From the NCBI RefSeq assembly GCF_036507355.1, contig NZ_AP027877.1: DNA of 64,000 nt; one strand, given 5' to 3'. How positions within the stretch are numbered: the stretch's first letter is position 1; each line of letters begins with the position of its first letter. The translations under genes and the position numbers were made by a program. Of this stretch, positions 14,440 to 56,296 are shown piece by piece. Under the pieces are notes generated by a model, which saw nothing but the letters and a program-made list of their open reading frames with translations, was not told where the DNA came from and ran no database searches. This DNA comes from Escherichia coli (lineage in GTDB: Bacteria; Pseudomonadota; Gammaproteobacteria; Enterobacterales; Enterobacteriaceae).

Positions 14440-14441
14440 GC

Positions 14442-14903: not shown

Positions 14904-14915
14904 CAAGGAGTTACC

Positions 14916-16088: not shown

Positions 16089-16091
16089 ACG

Positions 16092-16140
16092 GTTGTCAGC
16101 CGCCCGAATGGACGTAGAATGCCCGCAAGGGCGGCTGACA
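16092..16140 (+). terminator. Stem-loop after iadA
   Basis: TGTCAGCCGCCC ... GGGCGGCTGACA inverted repeat with a long loop; weak T-tract. Confidence 0.35.
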
Positions 16141-16152
16141 GAGTAAAACGTA

Positions 16153-17449: not shown

Positions 17450-18120
17450 TTTGCGCACTCCTGACGTTTAGCAACATATGCGGCTTGCCCTGAACACCGG
17501 GCACCACTGTATTGATGCTCATTTTCCATAGCCATTCCCTTTTGTTCATTACATCCATGTCAGTCTGAGACAGGCCTGAATCCTGTCAGCAAAGTATAAA
17601 ACCTTACTTGCCTATGAATATCTACTGACTTTTCAGGAAAAAAGTCATGATTTGATAAAAATCATCAAACTCAAAAAAAAACCGCTAGTATATTCTGAAT
17701 ATTCCGAATAGTTACGTAGATGAAAATACTTGTCACCACCGCTACTTAATTCCGGTGGGAAATTATTTATTTCCGCATAATCAGCCATGTATTATTTAAA
17801 ACAATTAGTTTGTAAATAATATAAATTGATAACATATCAAATACATCAAAAATACCATTCACAGGCATTATTAATATAGACATCAATATAGCAACATCAA
17901 ATTCCAATTAGTAATAAGATATGCTTTTAAATTGCATGCAAATAATTTTAAATGAGCGTTTTTTGATACTTTAGAGTGTTTCCCACCATTTAATATCACT
18001 GTGTAGAGTTGATATCACTACAACAGAAACATGCATGTCATTTGTTTACTTCTCTTTTTACTACAGAAAAATTTATCTATTTTTCTAAGCATCAGTGAAA
18101 TACTCATAAAGGTAACTATT

Positions 18121-18951: not shown

Positions 18952-19091
18952 CTACCAGGAAGAATGAGTACTAACATTCAGGTTATACAGATAGCTAAAC
19001 AATCCCCTGCAATTTACAAAGTAATACTCATTGCGACTTCTTAATTTAAGAAAGCGCAAGGAACGTTTACCCTTGCGCTTATTATAATAAG

Positions 19092-19865
19092 TCAGGCGTC
19101 GACTTTATCCAGCGGCCATGAATCAAACAGATAGCCATCAAAATAAATATCGTCAACGTTCGAGAATTCCAGCAGACGTTGCTTAACGTTTTCCAGATGC
19201 TGCCACATTGCCAGCTTCGCCGCTCGGGCATCTTTTTTGATTAACGCGGCGAGGATCTGTTTGTGATCGCCCAACCACTCTTTGCGATACAGGCTGTCAT
19301 CCAGATGGCTGTGCAACTGGATCCACATTGGATTGTTTTCCCGCCACTGCCAGGACTGACGGAACAGCTCCACCAGCATGCTGTTATGCGTTGCTTCGGC
19401 AATAGCGAGATGGAACTGCATGTCACCGCTTTCGCTGCTGCCCGGCGCACTGGAAGCCAGTTCACGCTCTTCCAGTTGCAATGCCTGACGCATTTTGACG
19501 ATATCTTCGCGGGTAGCCTGCAGGGCGGCAAACTCGGCGATGTTGCTCTCAAGAAGCTGTCGCGCCTGCAACAGCTCAAAAGGACCCGCATCATTGCAAA
19601 CGTTGGCATCCGGACTGTCTGTGTTGTGGCTGCCTGAGCTATCAAGAACATAGATACCGGCACCCCGGCGCACTTCCACCAGCCCTTTGATCTCCAGCAT
19701 GATCAGCGCTTCACGTACCACCGTCCGCGTGACATCAAGCATTTCTGCAATTTCACGCTCCGGCGGCAACCGTTCGCCAGGATTGTACGGCGTCTTTATG
19801 ATCAGATCGCGGATCATCGCCCCGACTTCCTGGTAAGGTCTTTGCGCAGAGGTGGCAGATTTCAT
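19092..19865 (-). CDS. uxuR: GntR-family repressor of the uxu operon
   Basis: 257-aa ORF MKSATSAQRPYQEVGAMIRDLIIKTPYNPGERLPPEREIAEMLDVTRT... Confidence 0.9.
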   Translation of the reverse strand: MKSATSAQRPYQEVGAMIRDLIIKTPYNPGERLPPEREIAEMLDVTRTVVREALIMLEIKGLVEVRRGAGIYVLDSSGSHNTDSPDANVCNDAGPFELLQARQLLESNIAEFAALQATREDIVKMRQALQLEERELASSAPGSSESGDMQFHLAIAEATHNSMLVELFRQSWQWRENNPMWIQLHSHLDDSLYRKEWLGDHKQILAALIKKDARAAKLAMWQHLENVKQRLLEFSNVDDIYFDGYLFDSWPLDKVDA

Positions 19866-23144: not shown

Positions 23145-24488
23145 ATGCATGTGCTTAACATTCTCTGGGTGGTATTCGGCATTGGTCTGATGCTGGTACT
23201 GAATTTGAAGTTCAAAATCAATTCAATGGTGGCTTTGTTGGTGGCGGCGCTGTCCGTCGGGATGCTGGCGGGCATGGATTTGATGTCGCTGCTGCACACC
23301 ATGAAAGCGGGCTTCGGCAACACGCTGGGGGAACTGGCTATCATCGTGGTGTTCGGTGCGGTCATCGGTAAATTGATGGTCGACTCCGGCGCGGCTCACC
23401 AGATAGCACATACGCTGCTGGCACGTCTCGGTCTGCGCTATGTACAGCTGTCGGTGATTATCATCGGCCTGATTTTTGGTCTGGCGATGTTCTATGAAGT
23501 GGCCTTTATCATGTTAGCGCCGCTGGTTATTGTCATTGCCGCCGAAGCTAAAATTCCGTTCCTGAAACTGGCGATCCCGGCAGTAGCAGCTGCCACTACC
23601 GCACATTCACTGTTCCCACCGCAGCCGGGTCCTGTGGCGCTGGTGAATGCTTATGGCGCAGATATGGGGATGGTTTATATCTATGGCGTACTGGTGACGA
23701 TCCCAAGTGTAATCTGCGCTGGTCTGATCCTGCCGAAGTTCCTCGGCAATCTTGAGCGCCCAACGCCATCATTCCTGAAAGCAGATCAACCGGTAGATAT
23801 GAACAATCTGCCCTCTTTCGGCGTTTCGATTCTGGTGCCGCTGATCCCGGCGATCATTATGATCTCCACCACCATCGCCAATATCTGGCTGGTAAAAGAT
23901 ACCCCTGCCTGGGAAGTGGTTAACTTTATCGGTTCCTCGCCGATTGCAATGTTTATTGCGATGGTGGTTGCATTCGTACTCTTTGGCACCGCACGTGGTC
24001 ATGACATGCAGTGGGTGATGAACGCTTTTGAAAGTGCGGTGAAAAGCATTGCAATGGTGATTCTGATCATCGGTGCGGGTGGCGTGTTGAAGCAAACTAT
24101 CATCGACACCGGCATTGGCGACACCATCGGCATGTTGATGTCCCACGGCAATATCTCGCCCTACATTATGGCATGGCTGATCACTGTGCTAATTCGTCTG
24201 GCGACGGGTCAGGGTGTCGTTTCGGCGATGACCGCCGCCGGGATTATCAGTGCTGCAATCCTTGATCCAGCAACCGGTCAGCTGGTTGGCGTGAATCCGG
24301 CGCTGCTGGTGCTGGCGACGGCTGCGGGTTCCAACACCCTCACCCACATTAATGATGCCTCATTCTGGCTGTTCAAAGGTTACTTTGACCTGTCGGTAAA
24401 AGACACGTTGAAAACCTGGGGACTGCTGGAGCTGGTCAACTCCGTGGTTGGGCTGATTATTGTGTTGATTATCAGCATGGTAGCGTAA
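23145..24488 (+). CDS. gntP: GntP-family gluconate/fructuronate transporter
   Basis: 447-aa hydrophobic ORF between uxuA and fimH, as in K-12. Confidence 0.9.
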
Positions 24489-37770: not shown

Positions 37771-38025
37771 TTAATTTGATTTATTCGCATCCATCAGCGC
37801 TTTTAACTGCTCCGGCGTAAACGGTGGTTTGCGTCGGTGCAACATCGCATGGCAATTAGGGTACACAGGCAGCAAATCATTAACTGGATCCAGCTGGTAA
37901 TCCTCTTTAATGGCTGACAGCGGCACCAGGTGATGCACATGGATAAAGCCTTCAGCGATATCACCATAGATCTTCACCAGATCAACACCGCATATTCCGT
38001 ATGAACCATACGGAGATTTAACCAT
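37771..38025 (-). CDS. Short HNH-nuclease-motif protein (84 aa), possibly a truncated gene
   Basis: HVHHLVPLS...NCHAMLH motif; its start overlaps the divergent next gene on a CATG. Confidence 0.45.
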   Translation of the reverse strand: MVKSPYGSYGICGVDLVKIYGDIAEGFIHVHHLVPLSAIKEDYQLDPVNDLLPVYPNCHAMLHRRKPPFTPEQLKALMDANKSN

Positions 38026-38593
38026 GACCTACAAATACAACCCCTTCTGGCAGCAACGTATTCGTGAGACGGTGCGGCACGCACTGAATGTTCATCCCCG
38101 CCTGACGGCATTGCGGGTTGACCTGCGTCTCCCGGATGTACCGGCAGCAACGGACGCAGCTGTGATATCCCGCTTCATCAATGCCCTGAAAGCCCGAATC
38201 GACGCTTACCAGAAACGTAAGCATCGGGAAGGTAAACGCGTGCATCCCACAACCCTGCATTACGTCTGGGCCCGGGAGTTTGGGGAGTGCAAAGGTAAAA
38301 AACACTATCACCTGATGCTGCTGGTCAACCGGGATACCTGGTGTCGTGCCGGTGATTACCGCGCTCCGGAGTCTCTGGCCGGGATGATTAAACAGGCGTG
38401 GTGCAGTGCCCTGGGAGTGGATGTCGGGTGCCATGCCACGCTGGTGCATTTTCCGGCCTGGCCGGCGGTGTGGCTGGCGCGTAATGATGACACCGGCTTT
38501 CAGCAAGTGCTGGAACGTGCTGACTATCTGGCGAAGGAGTATACCAAAGCTCACTGCACCGGTGAGCGCAATTTTGGCTGTAGCCGGAGTTGA
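38024..38593 (+). CDS. YagK/YfjJ-family (inovirus Gp2-like) island protein
   Basis: 189-aa ORF MTYKYNPFWQQRIRETVRHALNVHPRLTALRVDLRLPD...; family assignment from memory only. Confidence 0.4.
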   Translation: MTYKYNPFWQQRIRETVRHALNVHPRLTALRVDLRLPDVPAATDAAVISRFINALKARIDAYQKRKHREGKRVHPTTLHYVWAREFGECKGKKHYHLMLLVNRDTWCRAGDYRAPESLAGMIKQAWCSALGVDVGCHATLVHFPAWPAVWLARNDDTGFQQVLERADYLAKEYTKAHCTGERNFGCSRS

Positions 38594-38852
38594 GCACGAC
38601 TGGCGCGCCAATATCCGGCAAACCAAAAGTATGGGTTGTTGTCTGGCGGCAACGATGTATCCACTCGCCCACTGACTGTTTTTTACGTCAGTGTTCCATT
38701 GTGTGACAACCACAGTGCTGTAACAGCAACCAGCCTGCTTTACCCAAACTCCAGTCCAGATTTTAACTGAACCGCCATTCACACCCTGACCACGCTGCCC
38801 GTACCGGGACGGCTGTTGCCTGCGTGTCGTCTGGCGGCTAAGGAATATGACT

Positions 38853-39254
38853 ATGTACGCAAAATCCTTTATCGCTCTTGATGGCAACGGACGTCTGACG
38901 GGCGCCCGTACTGCACAGGCCGCACCTTATGCTCACTACACCTGCCACTTGTGTGGCAGTGCACTCAGATACCATCCGCAATACGACACTGAACTTCCCT
39001 GGTTTGAACACACTGACGACAGGCTGACAGAGCACGGTCAACAGTGCCCTTATGTCAGGCCGGAGCGCAGAGAAATACAGTTGATTAAACGTCTGCAGCA
39101 ATTCGTACCGGATGCCTTACCCGTGGTGCGTAAAGCCAGCTGGCACTGCAGACAATGTCACCACGATTATTATGGGGAGCAGTACTGCACACACTGCCAG
39201 ACCGGAGGATTCAGTATTCCCCGGACAACTCAGGAGGAAATATGCGAATTCTGA
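38853..39254 (+). CDS. Cys-rich (double CxxC) hypothetical protein, paralogue A
   Basis: CHLCG...PWFEH...CRQCHHDYYGEQYCTHCQTG; RBS-like AAGGAA upstream of the ATG at 38853. Confidence 0.45.
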   Translation: MYAKSFIALDGNGRLTGARTAQAAPYAHYTCHLCGSALRYHPQYDTELPWFEHTDDRLTEHGQQCPYVRPERREIQLIKRLQQFVPDALPVVRKASWHCRQCHHDYYGEQYCTHCQTGGFSIPRTTQEEICEF

Positions 39255-39676
39255 ACTGTTATATGGCGAATGACAGCAAAGGCCATTTTGTTACGGCGAA
39301 AGAAGCTGCGAAGCACAACCGACAGGACGTTTTGTGCTGTGTGTCCTGTGGATGCCCGTTAACACTTCAGCGGGGCAATGACGGACAACCACCGTGGTTT
39401 GAACATGACCAGATGACTGTCGCTGAAAAAATCCTGCTGCGATGTACCTGGCTTGACCCGGCGGAGAAAGAGGCCCGTCGTTTGCATCTGCAGGGCATGA
39501 CGGTTCCGGATTATACGGTGAAGGTGAGAAAGTGGTTTTGTGTGATGTGTGACGAAGATTATGAGGGGGAAAAGTGCTGCCCACGCTGCGGTACCGGGGT
39601 ATACAGCAGGGCGTGGGGGCGGCAGGAGGTGCCGTCGGAAGATGCCAGGGCTGATAATCCGTTACAGAGGCTGTAA
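39242..39676 (+). CDS. Cys-rich (double CxxC) hypothetical protein, paralogue B
   Basis: CVSCGCP...PWFEH...CVMCDEDYEGEKCCPRCGTG; AGGAGG RBS inside the 3' end of paralogue A; 13-bp overlap. Confidence 0.45.
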   Translation: MRILNCYMANDSKGHFVTAKEAAKHNRQDVLCCVSCGCPLTLQRGNDGQPPWFEHDQMTVAEKILLRCTWLDPAEKEARRLHLQGMTVPDYTVKVRKWFCVMCDEDYEGEKCCPRCGTGVYSRAWGRQEVPSEDARADNPLQRL

Positions 39677-40030
39677 TGGTTGCCTCCGGAGCAGTTTGCG
39701 GTGATGCCTTTCCCGGGAATGGATTGCCAGTGCGGGGACTGTGGAGCTTAATTCCGGTGTTGGTGGCCTTTCCGTTGATTTTATGCCAACAGCCCCCTGT
39801 GACTGACAGGCTGCCTCGTCATTCCATTCGTATCTCCAGTAACAGGGGGTTGTATTGTATTTTATTGTGCCGGTTCAGGTGTGCGTTTCCCGGCGCGTCT
39901 GCACCGGCTTAACCAAATTCAACAGGGATAAAATAGTGGTAAGCGTACAGCCTGAACCGTCTGGTCAGAATCTGACGAATTAGACAAAGTGGTGTCCACC
40001 AAATAAGTAGTGGGAACCAAAGTGTCAGAT

Positions 40031-40411
40031 ATGCAGAAAAATGTGACTCCCGGCAGGCGAAAAGGCTGCCCTAATTATCCTCCCGAATTTAAACAGCTGC
40101 TCGTTGCTGCCTCCTGTGAACCCGGGATATCCATCTCAAAACTTGCTCTTGAAAATGGCATTAACGCCAATCTGTTGTTCAAATGGCGACAACAATGGCG
40201 CGAGGGAAAGCTGCTATTACCTTCTTCAGAGAGCCCCCAGCTACTTCCTGTGACTCTCGATGCAGCTGCCGAACAGCCAGAATCGCTCGCAGAGGACCCG
40301 GAAACCCTCAGTATCAGCTGTGAGGTAACGTTCCGGCACGGGACGCTCCGCTTCAATGGCAATGTCAGCGAAAAGCTCCTGACTCTGCTGATACAGGAAC
40401 TGAAGCGATGA
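40031..40411 (+). CDS. IS66 accessory protein (orfA)
   Basis: MQKNVTPGRRKGCPNYPPEFKQLLVAASCEPGISISKLALENGINANLLFKWRQQW (helix-turn-helix-like). Confidence 0.7.
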   Translation: MQKNVTPGRRKGCPNYPPEFKQLLVAASCEPGISISKLALENGINANLLFKWRQQWREGKLLLPSSESPQLLPVTLDAAAEQPESLAEDPETLSISCEVTFRHGTLRFNGNVSEKLLTLLIQELKR

Positions 40412-40755
40412 TCCCGTTACCTTCCGGGACCAAAATTTGGCTGGTTGCCGGTATCACCGATATGAGAAATGGCTTCAACGGCCTGGCTGCGAAAGTACAA
40501 ACGGCGCTGAAAGACGATCCCATGTCCGGCCATGTTTTCATTTTCCGGGGCCGCAGCGGCAGTCAGGTTAAACTGCTGTGGTCCACCGGTGACGGACTGT
40601 GCCTCCTGACCAAACGGCTGGAGCGTGGGCGCTTCGCCTGGCCGTCAGCCCGTGATGGCAAAGTGTTCCTTACGCAGGCGCAGCTGGCGATGCTGCTGGA
40701 AGGTATCGACTGGCGACAGCCCAAGCGGCTGCTGACCTCCCTGACCATGCTGTAA
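40408..40755 (+). CDS. IS66 TnpB-like protein (orfB)
   Basis: MIPLPSGTKIWLVAGITDMRNGFNGLAAKVQ...; ATGA overlap with orfA. Confidence 0.75.
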   Translation: MIPLPSGTKIWLVAGITDMRNGFNGLAAKVQTALKDDPMSGHVFIFRGRSGSQVKLLWSTGDGLCLLTKRLERGRFAWPSARDGKVFLTQAQLAMLLEGIDWRQPKRLLTSLTML

Positions 40756-40804
40756 ATCTCTTTATCCTGGTTGTCACAGAATAAGCCCGGTAAAATACGG
40801 GCTT

Positions 40805-42190
40805 ATGAACGACATCTCTTCTGACGACATCTTCCTGCTAAAACAGCGCCTGGCCGAACAGGAAGCGCTGATCCACGCCCTGCAGGAAAAGCTGAGCAAC
40901 CGGGAGCGCGAAATAGACCATCTGCAGGCGCAGCTGGATAAACTCCGCCGGATGAACTTCGGCAGTCGTTCCGAAAAAGTCTCCCGCCGTATCGCACAAA
41001 TGGAAGCCGATCTGAACCGGCTTCAGAAAGAGAGCGATACGCTGACTGGTAGGGTGTATGACCCGGCAGTACAGCGTCCGTTGCGTCAGACCCGCACCCG
41101 TAAGCCGTTCCCTGAATCACTACCCCGTGACGAAAAGCGACTGTTGCCTGCGGCGCCGTGCTGCCCGAACTGCGGCGGTTCACTGAGCTATCTGGGCGAG
41201 GATACCGCCGAACAGCTGGAGTTGATGCGTAGCGCCTTCCGGGTTATCCGGACGGTACGGGAAAAACATGCCTGTACTCAGTGCGATGCCATCGTGCAGG
41301 CACCTGCACCTTCGCGGCCCATCGAGCGGGGTATCGCCGGACCGGGGCTGCTGGCCCGCGTGCTGACCTCGAAGTATGCAGAGCACACCCCGCTGTATTG
41401 CCAGTCAGAAATATACGGCCGGCAAGGTGTGGAGCTGAGCCGTTCACTGCTGTCGGGCTGGGTGGATGCATGCTGCCGGCTGCTGTCTCCGCTGGAAGAG
41501 GCGCTTCATGGCTATGTCATGACTGACGGCAAACTCCATGCCGATGATACCCCGGTCCAGGTACTGCTGCCGGGTAATAAGAAGACGAAGACCGGGCGGT
41601 TGTGGGCGTATGTTCGTGATGACCGCAATGCCGGGTCAGCGTTGGCACCTGCAGTGTGGTTCGCTTACAGCCCGGACAGAAAAGGCATCCATCCGCAGAC
41701 TCATCTTGCTTGCTTCAGCGGTGTGCTGCAAGCGGATGCGTACGCCGGGTTCAACGAGCTGTATCGCAATGGTGGGATAACGGAAGCTGCCTGCTGGGCT
41801 CATGCCCGCCGAAAGATCCACGATGTGCACGTCCGCATCCCGTCAGCACTGACGGAAGAAGCCCTAGAGCAGATCGGTCAGTTGTACGCCATAGAGGCGG
41901 ATATAAGGGGAATGCCGGCAGAGCAGCGGCTTGCTGAACGTCAGCGAAAAACGAAACCGCTGTTGAAATCCCTGGAAAGCTGGTTGCGTGAAAAGATGAA
42001 GACCCTGTTCTTCGGCTCTGGCCATGGTGGTGAGCGGGGAGCGCTACTGTACAGCCTGATCGGGACGTGCAAACTGAATGACGTGGATCCAGAAAGCTAC
42101 CTTCGCCATGTGCCTGGCGTCATAGCAGACTGGCCGGTCAACCGGGTCAGCGAACTGCTTCCGTGGCGCATAGCACTGCCAGCTGAATAA
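40805..42190 (+). CDS. IS66-family transposase (orfC)
   Basis: 461-aa ORF with an N-terminal coiled coil and a CxxC...CxxC zinc-ribbon region. Confidence 0.75.
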   Translation: MNDISSDDIFLLKQRLAEQEALIHALQEKLSNREREIDHLQAQLDKLRRMNFGSRSEKVSRRIAQMEADLNRLQKESDTLTGRVYDPAVQRPLRQTRTRKPFPESLPRDEKRLLPAAPCCPNCGGSLSYLGEDTAEQLELMRSAFRVIRTVREKHACTQCDAIVQAPAPSRPIERGIAGPGLLARVLTSKYAEHTPLYCQSEIYGRQGVELSRSLLSGWVDACCRLLSPLEEALHGYVMTDGKLHADDTPVQVLLPGNKKTKTGRLWAYVRDDRNAGSALAPAVWFAYSPDRKGIHPQTHLACFSGVLQADAYAGFNELYRNGGITEAACWAHARRKIHDVHVRIPSALTEEALEQIGQLYAIEADIRGMPAEQRLAERQRKTKPLLKSLESWLREKMKTLFFGSGHGGERGALLYSLIGTCKLNDVDPESYLRHVPGVIADWPVNRVSELLPWRIALPAE

Positions 42191-42428
42191 CACATCCCCG
42201 TCAATACGGCCCTCGCTGTACGCTTACTTTTGTTCGGACTGCTTATGGCCTTTTTCCACTGGTGTAGCAGGAAAGTTAACCGGCTGCCACCATGAGATGA
42301 CGTGTAAACCGTGCAGGCATGTTTTCACGTGGTGACGCTTTCATTGGGGGTCTACGCCGGAACCCCAATATTGTTCACATACATGAATTTGAAAAACTAA
42401 GCGATACTGCTGTCCGTACCTTATAAAC

Positions 42429-43787
42429 TTATTTCAACGCTTCCGGCAGCGTCACAATCCACAGTTCACTGTCAGACTCCGGTTTCTCCAGTGGCTTCAC
42501 TCTGAGGGTCGTTTCAACCTGCTTGTCGTCAAGCGTCAGCTTTCCTTCCGCGTTCACCCGATAATCCTTGAATGTCTTGCCCTCGACCGGATGTTGCATC
42601 GCCACCTTCACGCCAAAGTCGTTATCGTTCGCCACCGCCAGCGTTTTGCTGTCGATCAGCGCCAACCCTTCAGCCTTCTCCTGCTGCCAGCCCAAGGAGC
42701 GCAGATCAACAACCTGCGTTTTCTGCGCAAGGGTAATGCCGCGCTGTGACAGGGTTTTCTCATCATCAAACTCCGGATACTCACCCGGCTTGTCGAAGCC
42801 TGACAGGTCGCTCGCCTTATTGAGATCGACCTCGTAAATCAGGTTACGCATTCTGTTGTTTTTATCTCTTCCCTGTTCGATCAGCAGGATGTGCTGGTTA
42901 TCGAGCGCCACGATGTCTCCGATTTTAGCGTCGCTGTTTTTGCTGTAGGCCGCGCTGTCGATAGGATAACCGTACATCGCGGTTTTTCCGCTTGCCGGAT
43001 CGAAGCTCACCAGACGCGTAAACAGCGCCTTTTTCTTGCTCTTAGCGTCGATATCCAGCGTACTTTGCACGGCGACAATAATACGCCCGTCCGGCATACG
43101 GGTGAGGCCTTCAAAGCCGCGGTTCGCCTGACGCCATTTGAGGATATTTGGCAAACCGCCCGCAATCGCTTTTTCCCCTTCCGCCGCCTGCGGACCGTGG
43201 ATTGCCAGGATTTTCCCTTTACTGTCGATGTTAATCAGGAACGGGCCATACTCATCGCACAGCCAGTAACCTCCTTTACCATCCGGAGTGATCCCTTCCG
43301 TATCCAGCCCGCGATTATCCCCCTTCAGTCTATGTAACGTGTCGCTGAAGGCCACTTCATTGGTGGAGCCAATCACGTCGCTTGCCAGCGGCAGACCGTT
43401 GATCGCGCCTTTATCGTCATGCAGAGGACGGGGATCGATGGCCTCCGCTTTGCCGTTTTGTACACGAATCGTCATCAGCAGCGGCGCGAAATCTGGCGTA
43501 ACGAAAATTTTAGTTTCGTTTTTCCCCTCTTTCGGTGAATCCGCGTTCGGACCGCGATCGGTAATGGTTGCGAATGTCAGGGCATCGCCCTGTTTACCGG
43601 TGAACAGCAGGCCAGAACCTATCCCAACCGGAAGGCCGTTCGGGAATGCACTGGCAAATGCGCCGGCGTAGTTCACGTGCGTGCCTTCTGGAAAACTGAC
43701 GACATAGCGCTCAGCCGTAGGTTGTGCCGCCAGGGCAGAGAAAGAGAGCGTACAACCGATTAGCACGGGAATAATTTTTCTTTTCAT
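42429..43787 (-). CDS. Secreted beta-propeller protein, phytase-like esterase family (tentative)
   Basis: Signal peptide MKRKIIPVLIGCTLSFSALAA; repeated blades with TEGI / FEGL / AEGL and DEYGP motifs. Confidence 0.45.
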   Translation of the reverse strand: MKRKIIPVLIGCTLSFSALAAQPTAERYVVSFPEGTHVNYAGAFASAFPNGLPVGIGSGLLFTGKQGDALTFATITDRGPNADSPKEGKNETKIFVTPDFAPLLMTIRVQNGKAEAIDPRPLHDDKGAINGLPLASDVIGSTNEVAFSDTLHRLKGDNRGLDTEGITPDGKGGYWLCDEYGPFLINIDSKGKILAIHGPQAAEGEKAIAGGLPNILKWRQANRGFEGLTRMPDGRIIVAVQSTLDIDAKSKKKALFTRLVSFDPASGKTAMYGYPIDSAAYSKNSDAKIGDIVALDNQHILLIEQGRDKNNRMRNLIYEVDLNKASDLSGFDKPGEYPEFDDEKTLSQRGITLAQKTQVVDLRSLGWQQEKAEGLALIDSKTLAVANDNDFGVKVAMQHPVEGKTFKDYRVNAEGKLTLDDKQVETTLRVKPLEKPESDSELWIVTLPEALK

Positions 43788-44071
43788 ATTGTTAGCATCC
43801 ATAAAGTGAAGATCACACTACACCATAAAGAAGAAACGAGTCAGGAAAATGACATCGAATGGCAACATGCGCGGGCCTGAGGCCAAAGAAATGTAAAACA
43901 CTGTTGTTATTTGTAACAACGGAAACATTTACGGAAATTATTTGTCTTTCTTCGTGATCAAAAATGCTGTGTCTTGTTGGATTGGAGTGATGAGGGCTGC
44001 GTTTAGGAAACGCCCTATATTGTACGGTTGCATTATCGCGGTAGGGGTAATGCACGTGTCAGTATGATGAG

Positions 44072-44200
44072 CTGACCACACTCACGTGGGTGGACTGGTA
44101 TAACAATCGACGATTGCTGGAAAGGCAGGGCCATATCCCACCGGCAGAAGCAGAAAAAGCTTATTATGCTTCCATCGGAAACGATGATCTGGCAGCCTGA
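44072..44200 (+). pseudogene. C-terminal remnant of a DDE (rve-type, IS3-like) transposase
   Basis: Translates to ...WVDWYNNRRLLERQGHIPPAEAEKAYYAS...*, a typical transposase C-terminus; no upstream body. Confidence 0.4.
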
Positions 44201-44298
44201 GTTCACAGATAAAACACTCTCCAGGAAACCCGGGGCGGTTCACTTAGCCGCGTGTCCATTATTGCTGGATAAGATCATAACGAGGTAATGACTCCAAC

Positions 44299-44802
44299 TT
44301 ATTGATAGTGTTTTATGTTCAGATAATGCCCGATGACTTTGTCATGCAGCTCCACCGATTTTGAGAACGACAGCGACTTCCGTCCCAGCCGTGCCAGGTG
44401 CTGCCTCAGATTCAGGTTATGCCGCTCAATTCGCTGCGTATATCGCTTGCTGATTACGTGCAGCTTTCCCTTCAGGCGGGATTCATACAGCGGCCAGCCA
44501 TCCGTCATCCATATCACCACGTCAAAGGGTGACAGCAGGCTCATAAGACGCCCCAGCGTCGCCATCGTGCGTTCACCGAATACGTGCGCAACAACCGTCT
44601 TCCGGAGCCTGTCATACGCGTAAAACAGCCAGCGCTGGCGCGATTTAGCCCCGACATAGCCCCACTGTTCGTCCATTTCCGCGCAGACGATGACGTCACT
44701 GCCCGGCTGTATGCGCGAGGTTACCGACTGCGGCCTGAGTTTTTTAAGTGACGTAAAATCGTGTTGAGGCCAACGCCCATAATGCGGGCTGTTGCCCGGC
44801 AT
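44299..44802 (-). CDS. insB: IS1 InsB (transposase frame)
   Basis: 167-aa ORF ...[42 protein letters not shown]... Confidence 0.85.
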
Positions 44803-44996
44803 CCAACGCCATTCATGGCCATATCAATGATTTTCTGGTGCGTACCGGGTTGAGAAGCGGTGTAAGTGAACTGCAGTTGCCATGTTTTACGACAGTGAGA
44901 GCAGAGATAGCGCTGATGTCCGGCGGTGCTTTTGCCGTTACGCACCACCCCGTCAGTAGCTGAACAGGAGGGACAGCTGATAGAAACAGAAGCCAC
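44721..44996 (-). CDS. insA: IS1 InsA
   Basis: 91-aa [46 protein letters not shown]... Confidence 0.9.
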
Positions 44997-45065
44997 TGGA
45001 GCACCTCAAAAACACCATCATACACTAAATCAGTAAGTTGGCAGCATCACCGGCCTCGCATTTAA

Positions 45066-45911
45066 TTATTCATTTAAAGATTCAAGAAATGTCCAGCCTT
45101 TATGAGTAACATAATACATTTGTCCTTTTGCCCCTCTTTCAATCACAAAATCAAAGGATAACAGTTCGTTAAGTGCGCCCTCCCAACGGGCTACCTCTCT
45201 AGCCGAACTTCCACCAAAGGATTGATTTCCCGCTTGAATATCCGTGCCACCTAAATGCCTTATCACATAAATTGTTCCGCTATCATCGACACATGCCAAT
45301 TTCAGCAAACTGAGTGCATCGGCGGACAAATTACTTTCTGGCAAAGATTGACTTGTATTCGCATCAGGAGAATTGTTAATGGTAGATATAAGAGAAGACA
45401 AATAAGGGCTACTAGAAATAATTATCGAAAGTTGCCTACGGACTTTGTCTTTGAAATCAGATAAGTCATTAAAAGACTCTATCAATCCCTTTTGCATGCA
45501 CTCAATTTTGAACAATTTAAGAGACTCATATTGTTCTCTATCAAGGCTTTCAGGGGCAACAGGCTTTGAGGAAAAGTAAATCATTGCCGGTTTTCCCGCA
45601 TTCAAATGACGGTGAATTTCTTCGACTGTTCCGCTGGCCTCGTTCCCAGTCGGTGAGCCTAGACGAGTCCAAAACACACCGATTAATAAATCACAATCTA
45701 CTAATAATCTTTGATTAATCAACTCCTGAGGCCTAACTCCTAATTCGGGTGATGTATGAGTTTCCCATCCAATTGGTGTCAACATTACTTTTGAACGAGC
45801 TGAATTTATATCATTCCACTCATGGATCATTTCACGAATGACTTGTCTCTCTTCAGCGACATCACCAGGAGAAGCAATCATTACAGGGATAACAGTTGCT
45901 GTGTAAGCCAT
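45066..45911 (-). CDS. Hypothetical protein with DUF4062-like N-terminal domain and an uncharacterised C-terminal domain
   Basis: N-terminus VMIASPGDVAEERQVIREMIHEW ... DCDLLIGVFWTRLGSP ... SGTVEEIHRHLNAGKPAMIYF resembles the DUF4062 pattern as I recall it; GGAGAG RBS 6 nt upstream; visibly AT-rich. Confidence 0.45.
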   Translation of the reverse strand: MAYTATVIPVMIASPGDVAEERQVIREMIHEWNDINSARSKVMLTPIGWETHTSPELGVRPQELINQRLLVDCDLLIGVFWTRLGSPTGNEASGTVEEIHRHLNAGKPAMIYFSSKPVAPESLDREQYESLKLFKIECMQKGLIESFNDLSDFKDKVRRQLSIIISSSPYLSSLISTINNSPDANTSQSLPESNLSADALSLLKLACVDDSGTIYVIRHLGGTDIQAGNQSFGGSSAREVARWEGALNELLSFDFVIERGAKGQMYYVTHKGWTFLESLNE

Positions 45912-45924
45912 AAACTCTCCATAT

Positions 45925-46485
45925 TCAATCGGTAATAGCTGCTACAGTCGCTCTTGAAACGCCATATTGACGCGCTAACGCACTGATACTCAAACCGCTA
46001 TTCTTTTTCTCTAAAATCTCTCTACGGGCTTCTGACGCGATTTTAGGAGGTCTGCCCAATTTCTTACCTTCGGCTTTTGCTCGTGATAGTCCCGCCTGAG
46101 TGCGCTCAATCAGCAGATCACGCTCCATCTCCGCAACCGCGGCGAGCATAGATAATAGCAACTTCCCAGCGGCAGAAGTGAGATCTGTGTTACCAAGCTG
46201 GTGGACAAGAACCTTGATATTACGGTCAGCCAGCGCCCTTACCGTTTGCAGGACGTCAATCGCATCACGCCCCAGACGATCAAGCTTCGCTACCACCAAC
46301 GTTTCACCATCGCGGATTTTATTGAGCATTTCAGAAAATGCTTTACGTTGCATTGCCGGAACCTTCCCGCTAACAACATCGGCAAACCAGTAATCAATTT
46401 GCCACCCAGCCTGCCCAAGCTCCAGCCGTTGGTTCTCAGTATCCTGCTGCGATGTCGAAACACGTCCGTAGCCAAAAGTTGCCAT
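45925..46485 (-). CDS. Small serine recombinase (resolvase/invertase family), about 186 aa
   Basis: From MATFGYGRVSTSQQDTENQ (catalytic Ser region) with a C-terminal helix-turn-helix (LSISALARQYGVSRATV); GGGGAG RBS upstream of the ATG at 46485. The track ORF carries a 23-codon extension. Confidence 0.8.
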   Translation of the reverse strand: MATFGYGRVSTSQQDTENQRLELGQAGWQIDYWFADVVSGKVPAMQRKAFSEMLNKIRDGETLVVAKLDRLGRDAIDVLQTVRALADRNIKVLVHQLGNTDLTSAAGKLLLSMLAAVAEMERDLLIERTQAGLSRAKAEGKKLGRPPKIASEARREILEKKNSGLSISALARQYGVSRATVAAITD

Positions 46486-46507
46486 TGTTATCTCCCCATC
46501 TGACCCC

Positions 46508-46605
46508 TGCCAGAAAACGAGGCCAACATTAGGATGGCCTGCCAGAAAAGCCAAGGCTATTTTTCCAACAGTGTGAAAGCGTGCGATTGGGAGGTGCCAG
46601 AAAAC
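46508..46605. promoter_or_regulatory. Three direct copies of TGCCAGAAAA(C/G) upstream of the recombinase gene, plus a short GGCCA...TGGCC palindrome; candidate recombinase binding or regulatory site
   Basis: Copies read at 46508, 46540 and 46595; the GGCCAACATTAGGATGGCC palindrome lies between the first two. Confidence 0.35.
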
Positions 46606-47460
46606 GGTCGATTGATGACACCATCAAACACTAACAGTGTGCCCCGGCAACGCGCGCCTGCAACGGTTGTCTCGGATGAGCAAAATCTTAGGGTTTTCTC
46701 AGCGACCCCTGACGCGCGGGCACGCACATGCTCACGGGGGCGCGGGCGAGCTATACAGTTGAGGGAGGGGCAACCATAAGCGTGCAATTTTTCAAGCCGG
46801 GGATTCAGCTATAGGCTAACGGTAGAATGCGGCTTGTAGAGGGTTGTGCGCACATACCCAGTACAATCGCATTACTCCACGCGCACAAACCCCGGAGAGC
46901 CGCTTGCGGTGGGGGTTTAAGAGGTACAATTTTTGGTTCGGGTCATAAAGGACTTTTGAGAGCTGACTTAGCTTATTTAAACTGCATTCGTCTTGGCTAT
47001 GGAGACACGAGGCAGCTCAAGTTTTGTTCAAAACTTTGCAATATTTTGGTTCGATCTCATGTTCTCGTGCTAAAGAAATCAGCACTCGATCAAATTTTCA
47101 TTTTTTTTCTGAAACATTGACATACAGCCTAAGCCTTAAGGCACGTAGGGTTGGTCGAAATTTCCCTTTGACAACCTCAATTTAACCTCAAAATCAACCC
47201 TTGTACTGCAAAGAATCCTAACTAGAATGCTGAACATGTAGGGGGGAATCTTATTAACACACCCTATATGTTGTGCTCATGTATAAATGATGGGCATAAA
47301 AAAACCGGAGTCACCTGCGTGAATCCGGTCTATGAAGCATGACCGCCATGAGTCTGCAAACTCATAACGATTGTTAGCCTCACTATCGTTTCTAACGGCT
47401 CGATTGTGCCCGGCTTGGTTGGTTATGTAAACAGTAAGATAAAATCAAAAGGAACGATCC

Positions 47461-48375
47461 ATGCTTATTCAGAAAAAGCGTATTCGAAATATTGATAATT
47501 ACATACCTAACTTTGATGGCCGTGATATCTACATTGCACATTCTTTGCCAGATGCGGGGAAAACGGACTCTATTGGTTTCTCAAGTCAAAGAGCTTTAGG
47601 TGAAGAAGTCCTCCCCAAGATTTTAGGGCCAATAACCAGATTCAATGCTAATGGCAAATCAGTACCTGACAAAACAGCACCTAAAGAAACTGCATACAGA
47701 CAAATTTCATGGACTAGAAAGCAATGGATCGGAGGGGGCGCAACTCAAGAAGTTACTGACACTCGTGAAATTGAGTATAAGCGCTACAAGAGAATCCTCA
47801 CCCCTCCACCAAGCATAGAGTTAAAGATTGTAGAGAATCTTCAAGGGGAGAAGTTGATCATCTCTCCAAAGCTAAGTTTGACAGCTAACAACAAAGAGTT
47901 AGTGGCTCACTGCATTAATCTTTTTTTAGAGCTTTTTGGGTTGTGCGAAACTGTTGACGACCAACTTAATACCATCGTTAAAAGTAAATCTATAAAACTA
48001 AACTGGAGCCTCCTGCCTCAGGGTCAACAGCCTTGGAGTACTATCGGTTCAAAAATCCTTTCAGCTATTAAGATCAGGGGAAAGGGCAATACCGCTGTTG
48101 TTGAAGGCAGACTTGAACTTATCAATAGTAAAAAACCAGATTTCGTAGCGGTTGGGCAAGCTGGGTTCCAAGGCTACGTGATATTTGGGTTCACAGGCCA
48201 AAACATTTACGTGCTAGAAAGCTCACAATGTAATAACGCAACTTATATACTTAACAATAATTGGCAGCAGTTATCCCAGCTAACTAAAGCCGAAATACTA
48301 GACGGAAACTTGCACCATGCCCGTGTCATCCACCGTGTAAACTGGGCAGCAGAAATACTTAAATACTTACCATAA
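47461..48375 (+). CDS. Hypothetical protein (304 aa), no domain recognised
   Basis: ATG preceded by an AAGGAA RBS at about 8-nt spacing; visibly AT-rich; no homologue recognised by eye. Confidence 0.5.
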   Translation: MLIQKKRIRNIDNYIPNFDGRDIYIAHSLPDAGKTDSIGFSSQRALGEEVLPKILGPITRFNANGKSVPDKTAPKETAYRQISWTRKQWIGGGATQEVTDTREIEYKRYKRILTPPPSIELKIVENLQGEKLIISPKLSLTANNKELVAHCINLFLELFGLCETVDDQLNTIVKSKSIKLNWSLLPQGQQPWSTIGSKILSAIKIRGKGNTAVVEGRLELINSKKPDFVAVGQAGFQGYVIFGFTGQNIYVLESSQCNNATYILNNNWQQLSQLTKAEILDGNLHHARVIHRVNWAAEILKYLP

Positions 48376-48888
48376 AGCGCCGGACGCGCGGGAATGAACC
48401 CCCGCGCACTTTCAAACATACCGCAATAGAATCCATAAAGCCCCGTTGGTGGTAAGACAACAAGCGGAGCCTCTGGCGACTACATCACAGTTATGTCAGT
48501 TAGTGAGGCTTATCAGGATGACCATGTACCCAAGGGGAGCGAGGCCGAACCGCTGGCAGAGCTTGCATATGGTCTGCAAGTACCGTGACCACCATAAACC
48601 TGTTTATCCCCTGCGGCGTCTCGCGACAGCGGCAGAACGGGGGCATCGGGCTAAAATGCGCTTCACTAAAAGTTTTTGGGATTGTTTAGAGACAGTGGCT
48701 ACGTCATAGCTTTCAAGTTGAGTCAGTACGTGTTTGACGCTTGGAACTACACGCCGCTATGAGTTAACATCCCAATTACCACTATCAACCACAGCGGCTT
48801 TTTCAAGGGACATAACAGAGCATTTCTTACAGGCAAAAGAGACAGATTTTATTGTCTAACTACCTGTATTGTAAGGAATTTAGTGACT

Positions 48889-48973
48889 TGGTGCCGAAGG
48901 CCGGACTCGAACCGGCACGTATTTCTACGGTTGATTTTGAATCAACTGCGTCTACCGATTTCGCCACTTCGGC
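48889..48973 (-). tRNA. leuX: tRNA-Leu (leuX type, CAA anticodon)
   Basis: Reverse complement reads GCCGAAGTGGCGAAATCGGTAGACGCAGTTGATTCAAAATCAACCGTAGAAATACGTGCCGGTTCGAGTCCGGCCTTCGGCACCA, a cloverleaf with a long variable arm and CCA end. Confidence 0.9.
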
Positions 48974-49168
48974 ACTGAAGAGGTATGCGGAAAACGTTGT
49001 GGATTATACCTGTCGCACGCCACCATGCAAGCGCCAGCTTGCTCGCACCTCGCTAAGTGCTGAAATTTTCAGCATTGCATACAGCGATGTGTAACCTTTG
49101 TCACACTCCAGGCACCCCGCCCTGCCATGCTCTACACTTCCCAGACAACACCAGAGAAGGACCAAAAA

Positions 49169-50188
49169 ATGTCGATGATAAAAAGCTATGCCGCAAAAGA
49201 AGCAGGCGGCGAACTGGAAGTTTATGAGTACGATCCCGGTGAACTGAAGCCACAAGATGTTGAAGTGCAGGTGGATTACTGCGGGATCTGCCATTCCGAT
49301 CTGTCGATGATCGATAACGAATGGGGATTTTCACAATATCCGCTGGTTGCCGGGCATGAGGTGATTGGTCGCGTGGTGGCGCTCGGGAGCGCCGCGCAGG
49401 ATAAAGGTTTGCAGGTCGGTCAGCGTGTCGGGATTGGCTGGACGGCGCGTAGCTGCGGGCATTGCGATGCCTGTATTAGCGGTAATCAGATCAACTGTGA
49501 GCAAGGTGCGGTGCCGACGATTATGAATCGCGGTGGCTTTGCCGAGAAGTTGCGTGCGGACTGGCAATGGGTGATTCCACTGCCAGAAAATATTGATATC
49601 GAGTCCGCCGGGCCGCTGTTGTGCGGTGGTATCACGGTCTTCAAACCACTGTTAATGCACCATATCACTGCCACCAGCCGCGTTGGGGTAATTGGTATTG
49701 GCGGGCTGGGGCATATCGCTATAAAACTTCTGCACGCAATGGGATGCGAGGTGACAGCCTTTAGTTCGAATCCGGCGAAAGAGCAGGAAGTACTGGCGAT
49801 GGGTGCCGATAAAGTGGTGAATAGCCGCGATCCGCAGGCACTGAAAGCACTGGCGGGGCAGTTTGATCTCATTATCAACACCGTCAACGTCAGCCTCGAC
49901 TGGCAGCCTTATTTTGAAGCGCTGACGTACGGCGGTAATTTCCATACGGTCGGTGCGGTTCTCACGCCGCTGTCTGTTCCGGCCTTTACGTTAATTGCGG
50001 GCGACCGCAGCGTCTCTGGTTCTGCTACCGGCACGCCTTATGAGTTGCGTAAGCTGATGCGCTTTGCCGCCCGCAGCAAGGTTGCGCCGACTACCGAATT
50101 GTTCCCGATGTCGAAAATTAACGACGCCATTCAGCATGTACGCGATGGTAAAGCGCGCTACCGAGTGGTCCTGAAAGCCGACTTCTGA
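49169..50188 (+). CDS. ahr: NADPH-dependent aldehyde reductase (zinc alcohol dehydrogenase family)
   Basis: From [26 protein letters not shown]...GHEVIG...GIGGLGH. Confidence 0.9.
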
Positions 50189-50317
50189 TCCCTTTGCCGG
50201 GTGCCTGTCGCCCGGCACTTAAATCTCTTTGGAAGGCGTCTCGCAATCTGCTGAATTTAGCGGTGAAGAGTGCGCAGCCGTTGCCTATACTCCAGGCAGG
50301 AAACTGGAGGAAATCTC

Positions 50318-51820
50318 ATGAGCGAACCCCTGTTAATTGCCCGCACGCCGGACACAGAACTATTTTTACTGCCGGGAATGGCTAACCGTCACGGGCTGAT
50401 TACTGGCGCAACGGGGACGGGTAAAACTGTCACGCTGCAAAAACTGGCGGAGTCTCTATCGGAAATCGGTGTTCCGGTGTTTATGGCCGATGTGAAAGGC
50501 GATCTGACCGGCATCGCGCAGGCAGGAACGGCGTCGGAAAAACTGCTCGCAAGGCTTAAAAATATCGGCGTCAATGACTGGCAACCGCATGCCAATCCGG
50601 TGGTGGTGTGGGATATCTTTGGCGAGAAAGGCCATCCGGTGCGGGCGACGGTTTCGGATCTGGGGCCGCTGTTGTTGGCGCGGCTGTTGAATCTCAACGA
50701 TGTGCAGTCTGGCGTGCTGGATATCATCTTCCGCATTGCTGACGATCAGGGGCTGTTACTGCTCGACTTTAAAGATTTGCGGGCGATTACCCAGTACATC
50801 GGCGATAACGCCAAATCTTTCCAGAATCAGTACGGAAATATCAGTAGCGCATCGGTTGGTGCCATCCAGCGCGGGCTGTTGTCGCTGGAACAGCAAGGCG
50901 CAGCACACTTCTTTGGTGAGCCGATGCTGGATATCAAAGACTGGATGCGCACCGATGCCAACGGTAAAGGCGTTATCAATATCCTCAGCGTCGAGAAGCT
51001 TTATCAGATGCCGAAACTGTATGCCGCCAGCCTGTTGTGGATGCTCTCGGAGTTGTATGAACAATTGCCGGAAGCGGGCGATCTGGAGAAACCAAAACTG
51101 GTGTTTTTCTTCGACGAGGCACATCTGCTGTTTAACGATGCACCGCAGGTACTGCTGGATAAGATTGAGCAGGTGATAAGGCTTATTCGCTCAAAAGGCG
51201 TGGGCGTCTGGTTCGTTTCGCAAAATCCGTCCGATATTCCGGATAACGTGCTCGGCCAGCTCGGTAATCGCGTTCAACACGCTTTGCGAACTTTTACGCC
51301 CAAAGATCAGAAAGCGGTAAAAGCTGCGGCGCAAACCATGCGGGTCAATCCGGCATTTGATACCGAAAAGGCGATTCAGGAACTGGGCACCGGCGAGGCG
51401 TTGATCTCTTTTCTGGATGCGAAAGGAAGCCCTTCTGTGGTGGAACGGGCGATGGTGATTGCGCCTTGTTCGCGGATGGGACCGATGACGGAAGATGAGC
51501 GTAATGGCTTGATTAATCACTCTCCGGTGTATGGCAAGTACGAGGATGACGTGGACCGGGAATCCGCCTATGAGATGTTGCAAAAAGGCGTACAGGCAAG
51601 CGCCGAGCAGCAAAATAATCCTGCCGTGAAAGGGAAAGAGGTGGCGGTGGATGACGGCATTCTTGGTGGATTGAAGGATATTTTGTTTGGCACTACCGGA
51701 CCACGCGGCGGGAAGAAAGATGGTGTGGTGCAAACAATGGCGAAAAGCGCCGCCCGCCAGGTGACGAATCAGATTGTACGTGGGATGTTGGGGAGTTTGC
51801 TGGGGGGAAGAAGAAGGTAA
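50318..51820 (+). CDS. yjgR: DUF853 P-loop NTPase
   Basis: From [37 protein letters not shown] (Walker A). Confidence 0.85.
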
Positions 51821-51840
51821 GTCAGGCGCGATTTGTCTTT

Positions 51841-51879
51841 GCCTGATGCGACGCTGGCGCGTCTTATCATGCCTACACC
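51841..51879. repeat. REP element
   Basis: GCCTGATGCGACGCTGGCGCGTCTTATCATGCCTAC. Confidence 0.7.
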
Positions 51880-51980
51880 ACTGCAATATATTGGATTTTC
51901 ATGATTTTTCAGGCATGAACGAAGCACACTTTGCTAACAATAATAAAGGGAGCTTTCGCTCCCTTTATTCGTTCATTCGG

Positions 51981-53063
51981 TTACGATTTTCTCATTAACA
52001 GCCACAGGCTGATTAAGAAGAAGCTGGCGCTTGGCAACAGTGCGCCGATGATCGGCGGGATGCCATAAACCAACGTCAGCGGGCCGAAGATCTGGTCCAG
52101 TACATAGAAGACAAAACCGAAGCTGATACCGGTGACCACACGCACACCCATCGGTACGCTACGCAGTGGGCCAAAGATGAACGACAGCGCCATCAGCATC
52201 ATCACCGCCACGGATAGCGGCTGGAAGATTTTGCTCCACATGTTGAGCTGATAACGTCCGGCATCCTGACCGCTCGATTTCAGATACTTCACATAGTTGT
52301 GCAAACCGCTGATAGAGAGTGCATCCGGATCCAGCGCCACCACGCCCAGTTTGTCAGGCGTGAGGTTGGTTTTCCAGGTGCCGCTCACCGTCTGCGAACC
52401 GGTGATCTGTTTCGGATTGGTCAGATCAGATTCATCAATCTGCGACAGACGCCAGACTTTATGTTCCGGGTCAAACTTCGCGGTAGCGGCATAGCGTACG
52501 GATTGCAGACGACGATTCTCGTTAAAGGCATAAATACTGATGCCACCTAACTCTTCGTCACCTTTAACCCGCTCAATGTAGACGAAGTTGTTGCCATCTT
52601 TCGCCCATAAACCTTGCTGGGTAGAGAGCAACGAGCCGCCGTACATCGCCTGCGCACGGTAGTTACGCGCCATCTGCTCGCCCTGCGGCGCGACCCATTC
52701 GCCAATCGCCATCGTCAGCAAGACCAGCGGAATGGCGGTTTTCATCACCGACAGCGCCACCTGCATACGGGTAAAACCAGAAGCCTGCATCACCACCAGT
52801 TCGCTGCGCTGCGCCAGCATCCCAAGACCAAGCAACGCCCCAAGCAAAGCCGCCATCGGGAAGAATATTTGCACATCTTTCGGCACGCTCAGCAAGGTAT
52901 ACATTCCTGCGCCTAACGCGTCGTAGCTCCCCTGCCCGGCTTTTTTCAACTGATCGACAAATTTGATAATGCCCGACAGCGACACCAGCATGAACAGCGT
53001 CATCATGATGGTGGTGAAAATAGTTTTACCGATATAGCGGTCAAGTACGCCAAAAGGTTGCAT
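51981..53063 (-). CDS. lptG: LPS export ABC permease
   Basis: From MQPFGVLDRYIGKTIFTTIMMTLFMLVSL. Confidence 0.9.
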   Translation of the reverse strand: MQPFGVLDRYIGKTIFTTIMMTLFMLVSLSGIIKFVDQLKKAGQGSYDALGAGMYTLLSVPKDVQIFFPMAALLGALLGLGMLAQRSELVVMQASGFTRMQVALSVMKTAIPLVLLTMAIGEWVAPQGEQMARNYRAQAMYGGSLLSTQQGLWAKDGNNFVYIERVKGDEELGGISIYAFNENRRLQSVRYAATAKFDPEHKVWRLSQIDESDLTNPKQITGSQTVSGTWKTNLTPDKLGVVALDPDALSISGLHNYVKYLKSSGQDAGRYQLNMWSKIFQPLSVAVMMLMALSFIFGPLRSVPMGVRVVTGISFGFVFYVLDQIFGPLTLVYGIPPIIGALLPSASFFLISLWLLMRKS

Positions 53064-54163
53064 CACACCGCTCCTTTACGCGAAAAACTGGCGCGCAGGC
53101 GGCGGACCGGCACAGTGTCCCAAAGGTTGAGAACAATCGCCAAAGCCAGATAAATCAGGTTAACGGTCCACATCCACAGCGTCGGGTCCAGCTTACCTTT
53201 ACCGCCGTTCGATTTCAGGGAGGTCTGGATCAGGAAGAAAAGTAGATACAGCAGCATGGCTGGCAGCATCGACAGTACGCGTCCCTGACGCGGGTTAACC
53301 ACGCTCAACGGTACAACCATAAGTGCCATCATAAACACGGTGAATACCAACGTGATACGCCAGTTCAGTTCTGCGCGGGCACGATCGGTGTCAGTGTTCC
53401 ACAATGTGCGCATGTCCATCTGGTCGGTATCGTTCGGGTCGAGCGCCACCGCCTGGTGACCAATGATCGCCTGATAATCCTGGAAATCCGTAATGCGGAA
53501 ATCACGTAACAGTGCAGTGCCTTCGAAGCGCGTTCCCTGGTTGAGAGTGACGACCTGGGAGCCGTCGCGCAGCTGGGTTAAATGTCCGGAATCGGCCACC
53601 ACCACAGAAGGTCGTGCATTACCTTTTGGTCGAATTTGTGCGAGGAACACATCTTTGAAATCGCTGCCGTCAACGCTTTCGATGAACAGCACCGAGCTGC
53701 CATTAGTCGCTTGCTGGAATTGCCCTTGCGCCAGCGCCGCCATGCCAGGGTTCGCTTTCGCTTCTGCTAACACTTCATCCTGATGACGCGATGACCACGG
53801 TCCCGCCCACATCACGTTAACCGCCGCGACGATTGCCGTGAATACCGCAAGGATCATTGCCGCTTTCACCAGAACCGCTTTGCTCAGGCCGCAGGCATGC
53901 ATTACCGTAATTTCACTTTCGGTATACAGTTTGCCCAGCGTCATCAGCAGCCCGAGGAACAGGCTTAATGGCAGGATAAGCTGCGCCATTTCCGGCACGC
54001 CCAACCCGAGAAGGGAGAGCACCAGATTCGCCGGAATATCGCCGTCAACCGCTGCGCCGAGGATCCTCACTAACTTTTGACAGAAGAAGATCAAAAGCAA
54101 GATGAAGAGTATCGCCAGCTGGCTTTTGAGCGTCTCCCGCACCAGATATCTTATGATTATCAC
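53063..54163 (-). CDS. lptF: LPS export ABC permease
   Basis: MIIIRYLVRETLKSQLAILFILLLIFFCQK... Confidence 0.9.
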   Translation of the reverse strand: MIIIRYLVRETLKSQLAILFILLLIFFCQKLVRILGAAVDGDIPANLVLSLLGLGVPEMAQLILPLSLFLGLLMTLGKLYTESEITVMHACGLSKAVLVKAAMILAVFTAIVAAVNVMWAGPWSSRHQDEVLAEAKANPGMAALAQGQFQQATNGSSVLFIESVDGSDFKDVFLAQIRPKGNARPSVVVADSGHLTQLRDGSQVVTLNQGTRFEGTALLRDFRITDFQDYQAIIGHQAVALDPNDTDQMDMRTLWNTDTDRARAELNWRITLVFTVFMMALMVVPLSVVNPRQGRVLSMLPAMLLYLLFFLIQTSLKSNGGKGKLDPTLWMWTVNLIYLALAIVLNLWDTVPVRRLRASFSRKGAV

Positions 54164-55941: not shown

Positions 55942-55944
55942 TTG

Positions 55945-56275
<331 letters not shown>

Positions 56276-56296
56276 CCACCACAAGAAGCCCCATTT

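Follow-up and report, generated by a model that had tools for sequence, protein, structure and literature searches.

The 129-bp ahr-yjgR spacer of Escherichia coli as the probable empty allele of the site that holds the idn genes in K-12

In the stretch of Escherichia coli DNA analysed here (64 kb; hereafter the window), ahr is followed after a short spacer by yjgR, whereas in K-12 the genes idnK-idnDOTR, known as the GntII or L-idonate locus, lie between these two. Does the junction in the window result from a deletion in this strain, are the idn genes located elsewhere in its genome, or does the region exist in two alternative forms, of which the window displays one? We compared the spacer and its flanking genes with idn-less and idn-containing loci from E. 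coli and from other Enterobacterales, and the frequency of each arrangement was determined in 5426 complete E. coli genomes.

The ahr-yjgR region in the window and in K-12

The genes surrounding the junction are listed below with their coordinates in the window, their strand and the basis of their identification.

48889..48973, minus strand: leuX, tRNA-Leu(CAA) (ARAGORN; same placement relative to ahr in all reference loci)
49169..50188, plus strand: ahr (yjgB), NADPH-dependent aldehyde reductase, 339 amino acids (NCBIfam NF047908)
50318..51820, plus strand: yjgR, HerA-like P-loop ATPase, 500 amino acids (Pfam PF05872 HerA_C, 838 bits, full length)
51981..54163, minus strand: lptG (51981-53063) and lptF (53063-54163) (NCBIfam LptG/LptF equivalogs; annotation of identical sequence)

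The match to the Ahr equivalog NF047908 (554 bits for a cut-off of 470) begins at residue 15 of a 353 amino acid open reading frame (49127-50188), and the start of ahr was therefore placed at 49169. Since the TGA of ahr occupies 50186-50188 and the ATG of yjgR begins at 50318, the gap between the two genes is exactly 129 bp (50189-50317), which confirms the coordinates and the distance of about 130 bp given in the initial annotation. The order of leuX, lptG, lptF and pepA around ahr and yjgR is the normal one for E. coli. An identical stretch is found in strain YZLc1-3, where ahr and yjgR are annotated in RefSeq and are also separated by 129 bp; identity to the window over the ahr-yjgR-pepA stretch is 99.9–100%.

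Several features of the neighbourhood vary among strains. The tRNA gene leuX marks the variable island side of ahr, and the leuX island of YZLc1-3 differs from that of the window in that it contains dndBCDE/dptFGH phosphorothioation genes and an integrase (locus 1-19103). In the leuX-proximal part of the window (37800-48900), no P4-type integrase adjoins leuX; the region contains genes for a serine recombinase (45925-46554, minus strand) and an IS66 transposase (40805-42190, plus strand), an IS1 (44299-44802, minus strand) and open reading frames of unknown function at 47461-48375 (plus strand) and 45066-45911 (minus strand). At most 64% of the leuX-proximal 11.3 kb is present in one place in any complete E. 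coli genome. On the other side, the lengths of the yjgR-lptG spacer (118 or 160 bp; 51821-51980 in the window) and of the pepA-holC spacer (133 to 353 bp; 55942-56296 in the window) differ between strains, possibly through repetitive extragenic elements. In E. coli Ecol_AZ155, yjgR is annotated as 180 nt longer than usual (3317-4999) and overlaps lptG, presumably because of a changed stop codon. A few plasmids carry an ahr-like gene annotated as 'zinc-binding dehydrogenase', with ~94% identity to part of ahr (e.g. NZ_CP172870.1, 83522-83916).

The initial annotation placed idnK-idnDOTR between ahr and yjgR in K-12, a map that adjacency of the two genes in K-12 would have refuted. Inspection of the K-12 derivative Origami2(DE3) established the order leuX, ahr, idnK (on the opposite strand), idnD, idnO, idnT, idnR and yjgR, so that K-12 does have the idn genes between ahr and yjgR, as stated there. 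The same cluster is present at 100% identity in K-12 DH10B, and CFT073 has the same idn gene order at the same site; the idnK-idnD-idnO-idnT-idnR cassette measures 5.05 kb in the K-12 derivatives and in CFT073. The five idn genes expected between ahr and yjgR in a GntII/L-idonate locus were not found there in the window, and a blastn search of the 64-kb window with the 5046-bp K-12 idn block gave zero matches. A tblastn search of the window with the five Idn proteins returned distant paralogs only and no orthologues; these paralogs were Ahr (33% identity to IdnD over 119 residues) and GntP (encoded at 23145-24488; 41% identity to IdnT).

Comparison of the spacer with the loci of idn-containing strains and of related species led to the following subdivision.

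50189..50317, no strand assigned: ahr-yjgR spacer, 129 bp, interpreted as the 'empty-site' allele of the idn slot
50189..50278, no strand assigned: segment of 90 bp restricted to the idn-less allele (blastn-short, alignments)
50195..50217, plus strand: hairpin with a 9-bp GC-rich stem and a 5-nt loop (terminator consensus scan, RNA fold)
50240..50273, no strand assigned: conserved box CTCGCAATCTGCTGAATTTAGCGGTGAAGAGTGC, 34 bp, absent from K-12 (cross-strain and cross-species alignment)
50279..50317, plus strand: yjgR leader, 39 bp, common to idn-less and idn-containing alleles (alignment)

When the spacer was searched with blastn-short against the K-12 and CFT073 loci, the match was limited to spacer positions 91-129. 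Homology between the window and idn-containing strains thus ends at the ahr stop codon and resumes 39 bp upstream of the yjgR start; this leader, located directly upstream of yjgR, is identical to that of CFT073 at 39 of 39 positions and to that of K-12 at 38 of 39. Nothing in the K-12 and CFT073 loci corresponds to positions 50189-50278, which show no similarity to idn and contain no idn remnant; a search for copies elsewhere in the window was likewise negative. In the idn-containing strains, ahr and idnK are convergent, with stop codons 3 bp apart, and a different stretch of 38 bp lies downstream of the cassette and upstream of the shared yjgR leader. Judging from these alignments, the two alleles differ by replacement (90 bp versus ~5.09 kb) and not by a clean insertion or deletion, given that the 90 bp lack a counterpart and that the idn-containing strains have 38 bp of spacer of their own.

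The part of the spacer restricted to idn-less strains contains two distinctive elements. The first is the hairpin, which begins 7 nt after the ahr stop codon and gives way to a T-rich tail, CTTAAATCTCTTT, that extends to 50230; its predicted fold has an energy of −21.5 kcal/mol (z = −2.5) and it was listed as terminator-like in the consensus scan. A GC-rich stem-loop with a T-rich run directly after the gene is what is expected of an intrinsic terminator, the T-run being interrupted in this case, and the hairpin is a probable, putative rho-independent terminator of ahr. Citrobacter werkmanii has a hairpin of a different sequence at the same place after ahr. The second element, the box at 50240-50273, is invariant in eight E. 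coli and displays one change in E. albertii and four in C. werkmanii; a partial similarity to it (CGCAA..GAATTTA) is found upstream of yjgR in Enterobacter cloacae. The spacer as a whole is better conserved than the coding sequences that flank it (0–3 differences within E. coli; 4.7% divergence from E. albertii, versus 10–11% for the coding flanks), which suggests constraint on the box.

The box is a candidate regulatory element and may possibly act on yjgR, a weak reading because no promoter consensus was found for this gene (none of the sigma-70 type in our scan); the site listed in a genomic-SELEX study lies inside yjgR only (PMC5493296). The spacer was also considered as a structured RNA and this was rejected: an Rfam scan of 50050-50450 gave no match at an E-value of 1 or less, the middle helix predicted by alifold is broken in Citrobacter without covariation, and the spacer alignment contains no compensatory changes outside the terminator stem. 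The shared leader contains TATACT (50286-50291), a small hairpin CTCCAG/CTGGAG (50290-50309) and GGAGG (50306-50310) located 7 nt before the ATG; from its sequence and position, the latter would be the ribosome-binding site of yjgR, and the roles of the other leader motifs are likewise presumptive.

Distribution and age of the two states

Among the 5426 complete E. coli genomes, ahr is contiguous with yjgR, as in the window, in 3212 and the idn block is present in 2055. Most of ahr is missing from about 160 of the 5426. In strain G8, the sole ahr-truncated genome examined, 93 bp of ahr are left, and the 129-bp spacer known from the window lies between this remnant and yjgR (6002-6223); since the spacer is retained in G8, the ahr-truncated genomes are probably idn-less too. 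The empty state is therefore the majority state in E. coli (59%, or ~62% when the ahr-truncated genomes are included), and K-12 belongs to the minority type.

The same spacer with both of its junctions was found in seven other idn-less E. coli, where it is collinear with that of the window, 127–129 bp long and different from it at 0–3 positions; in Ecol_AZ155 it has two 1-bp deletions. A search across genomes with YjgR gave at least 80 loci and extended the comparison to at least seven from Enterobacterales (one from E. albertii and two each from Citrobacter, Enterobacter and Yersinia); neither Salmonella nor Klebsiella was represented among the YjgR matches listed. The empty allele is conserved outside E. 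coli: ahr adjoins yjgR in E. albertii, with a spacer of 129 bp that has six differences, and in C. werkmanii, with a recognisably homologous spacer of 136 bp in which the box is nearly intact. The occupied arrangement is not confined to E. coli either, for Citrobacter sp. FP75 has the order ahr-idnK-idnD-idnO-idnT-idnR-yjgR, with proteins 80–96% identical to those of K-12, and the right-hand junction is the same there as well. In two Enterobacter, the ahr-yjgR slot contains a single Dak1/Dak2 dihydroxyacetone-kinase gene on the opposite strand (7217-8863 and 7224-8930). As the site is empty in E. albertii and C. werkmanii and occupied in Citrobacter sp. FP75, each state is present in more than one genus and both are old.

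Which of the two came first can be answered with less assurance. One possibility is that the ancestor of Escherichia and Citrobacter already had idn at the site, and that a single ancient loss gave rise to the empty allele. Gene order and junctions are shared by E. coli and Citrobacter sp. FP75, and the divergence of their Idn proteins is similar to that of the flanking genes; Salmonella also has idn genes (PMC6054384), an observation that concerns their presence and not their placement. Nevertheless, the hairpin and the conserved box of the empty spacer cannot come from the occupied allele, and part of the box (the similarity mentioned above for Enterobacter cloacae) is found upstream of yjgR where a different gene fills the slot. 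An insertion that replaced 90 bp is also simpler than a deletion that created 90 bp of functional-looking sequence. We therefore regard ancient loss as rather unlikely and favour the opposite polarity, in which 90 bp of an ancestral spacer gave way to idn. This preference is tentative, because both states occur in Citrobacter and because the outgroup loci are only a handful.

Exchange between the two states

The reading that best accommodates these observations, to which we assign a probability of roughly 0.85 as a whole, is that the chromosomal site between ahr and yjgR exists in two states, and that the window strain has the empty one. In the empty state, the terminator-like hairpin of ahr, the conserved box and the yjgR leader are contained in 129 bp; in the occupied state, represented by K-12 and CFT073, the first 90 bp are replaced by the 5.05-kb idnK-idnDOTR cassette and 38 bp of its own downstream spacer. 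Strains most likely switch from one state to the other by homologous recombination, upon receipt of DNA from a donor in the opposite state and with crossovers in the flanking core genes, and the window strain most likely inherited or received its empty allele instead of generating it by a private deletion. Ordinary homologous recombination is the most likely route since the cassette has neither mobility genes nor terminal repeats: its annotation in K-12 and CFT073 includes no recombinase or transposase gene, only five metabolic or regulatory genes, and no direct or inverted repeats were found at its boundaries. A 19-nt match (84%) between a position ~100 bp into ahr and another 68 bp into yjgR was considered and set aside, as it looks like chance.

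The flanking genes were compared in 16 sequences, nine idn-less (eight E. coli and E. albertii) and seven idn-containing E. coli. The ahr and yjgR alleles are not grouped by idn state in this sample; for instance, the yjgR of the window differs by 3.4% from that of the idn-containing strain ZF34 and by 5.6% from that of the idn-less strain APEC 102026. This lack of sorting by idn state indicates repeated exchange, an argument from incongruence and not from a phylogeny. The cassette itself is much more uniform: its divergence is 0.02–1.2% among the seven carriers, which have diverse backgrounds, versus mostly 2–7% for the abutting ahr and yjgR, and identity to K-12 reaches 99% or more in 1989 of the 2055 idn cassettes. 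In a comparison of K-12 with CFT073 (locus 2894-10542 versus 4978-12629), bins of 250 bp contain 0–5 differences within the cassette and 28 in the first full yjgR bin. It is likely that the cassettes share a young common ancestor and recombine only among carriers, and that the flanks recombine population-wide in tracts that stop at the heterology. The drop of diversity inside the cassette is a small example of separate histories for accessory segments and core flanks. A broader proposition is that the ahr-yjgR site is a long-lived trans-species polymorphism under selection (empty, idn or dak), that idn in E. coli stems from a single recent copy that swept across phylogroups, and that the box controls yjgR differentially in most E. 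coli compared with the laboratory strain; taken as a whole, it is doubtful.

A recent deletion of idnK-idnDOTR, specific to the strain or its lineage, from a K-12-like ancestor is very improbable. An occupied ancestor is conceivable, as idn lies at exactly this site in K-12, CFT073 and a Citrobacter, but such a deletion would have left the two flanks of idn joined to each other, whereas 90 of the 129 bp of the spacer are absent from the K-12 and CFT073 loci, for which reason the spacer was rejected as a deletion scar. In addition, the same spacer with the same ends recurs in the 3212 E. coli; E. albertii, C. werkmanii and each of the seven further idn-less E. coli that were sampled have it too. 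A private deletion in the window strain is thus effectively excluded.

Site-specific insertion and excision of the idn cassette as a mobile element at ahr-yjgR carries even less weight. Its boundaries are precise and identical in seven of seven idn-containing E. coli and in a Citrobacter, the sequence diversity steps sharply at these boundaries, and a variable leuX island lies 1.2 kb away, all of which could be expected of such an element. However, in addition to its lack of terminal repeats, the cassette codes only for a kinase, two dehydrogenases, a transporter and a LacI-type regulator; ahr sits between it and leuX; and the empty site does not correspond to the occupied site minus its insert, 90 bp being different.

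Finally, presence of idn at another locus or on a plasmid of this strain can be given next to no credence, because the idn blocks of the collection are all chromosomal and never on a plasmid, the ahr-idnK and idnR-yjgR junctions are found in 2051 and 2052, respectively, of the 2055 carriers (at most about three genomes could have idn outside ahr-yjgR), and yjgR, essentially single-copy (5429 places in 5425 genomes), is here joined to ahr; the resulting verdict, that a second-site copy is very unlikely, is a statistical one derived from population counts.

Consequences and comparison with known systems

The idn genes are described as enabling the cell to take up L-idonate and to turn it into gluconate by way of 5-ketogluconate, and as encoding in addition a thermosensitive gluconokinase and the regulator (Bausch et al. 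1998, 2004, as cited in PMC3251573 and PMC7924626). The window strain is thus predicted to be devoid of L-idonate catabolism and of a second, thermosensitive gluconokinase, and use of gluconate through GntI and GntP is expected to remain (gntP is present in the window at 23145-24488). This is of relevance to metabolic models and to those who use K-12 as a reference map. In most E. coli, the sequence upstream of yjgR differs from that of K-12, and ahr is followed by a putative terminator that K-12 lacks. Beyond such bookkeeping, the significance of the site is small.

The absence of idn is a common difference between strains, already published as a matter of presence or absence, and does not point to any special deletion. 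Nissle 1917 is without idnK-idnDOTR, while its relative CFT073 and K-12 have the genes (PMC7924626, Fig. 3D), and it still grows on gluconate and 5-ketogluconate (PMC7924626). The ST131 strains JJ1886 and S250 are without idnK, which is present in SE15 (PMC5369007). In a pan-genome association study, where idn figures as an accessory gene set, 83% of the pks+ genomes had it, versus ~31% of those that were pks- (PMC8545132). Nissle 1917, JJ1886, S250 and O157:H7 are idn-less like the window, with no difference of substance; O157:H7 has the same 129-bp ahr-yjgR spacer, with two differences from the window, and ahr and yjgR alleles that are ~4–5% different.

The leuX-associated islands (KpLE2 in K-12; Bishop et al. 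2005 for Salmonella, as cited in PMC9927239) constitute a neighbouring hypervariable region and, like the idn slot, vary between strains by presence or absence. They have P4-type integrases and lie at the tRNA gene, on the other side of ahr, whereas neither an integrase nor attachment repeats are present at the idn slot, whose alternative contents are few. With the K-12 GntII locus, the window shares the site, the flanking genes and the 39-bp yjgR leader; K-12 has the five idn genes where the window has instead the 90 bp with the terminator-like hairpin and the box. The ahr-dak-yjgR arrangement of Enterobacter represents a further use of the same slot for an accessory carbon-catabolism gene, the cargo in that case being a Dak1/Dak2 kinase and not idn.
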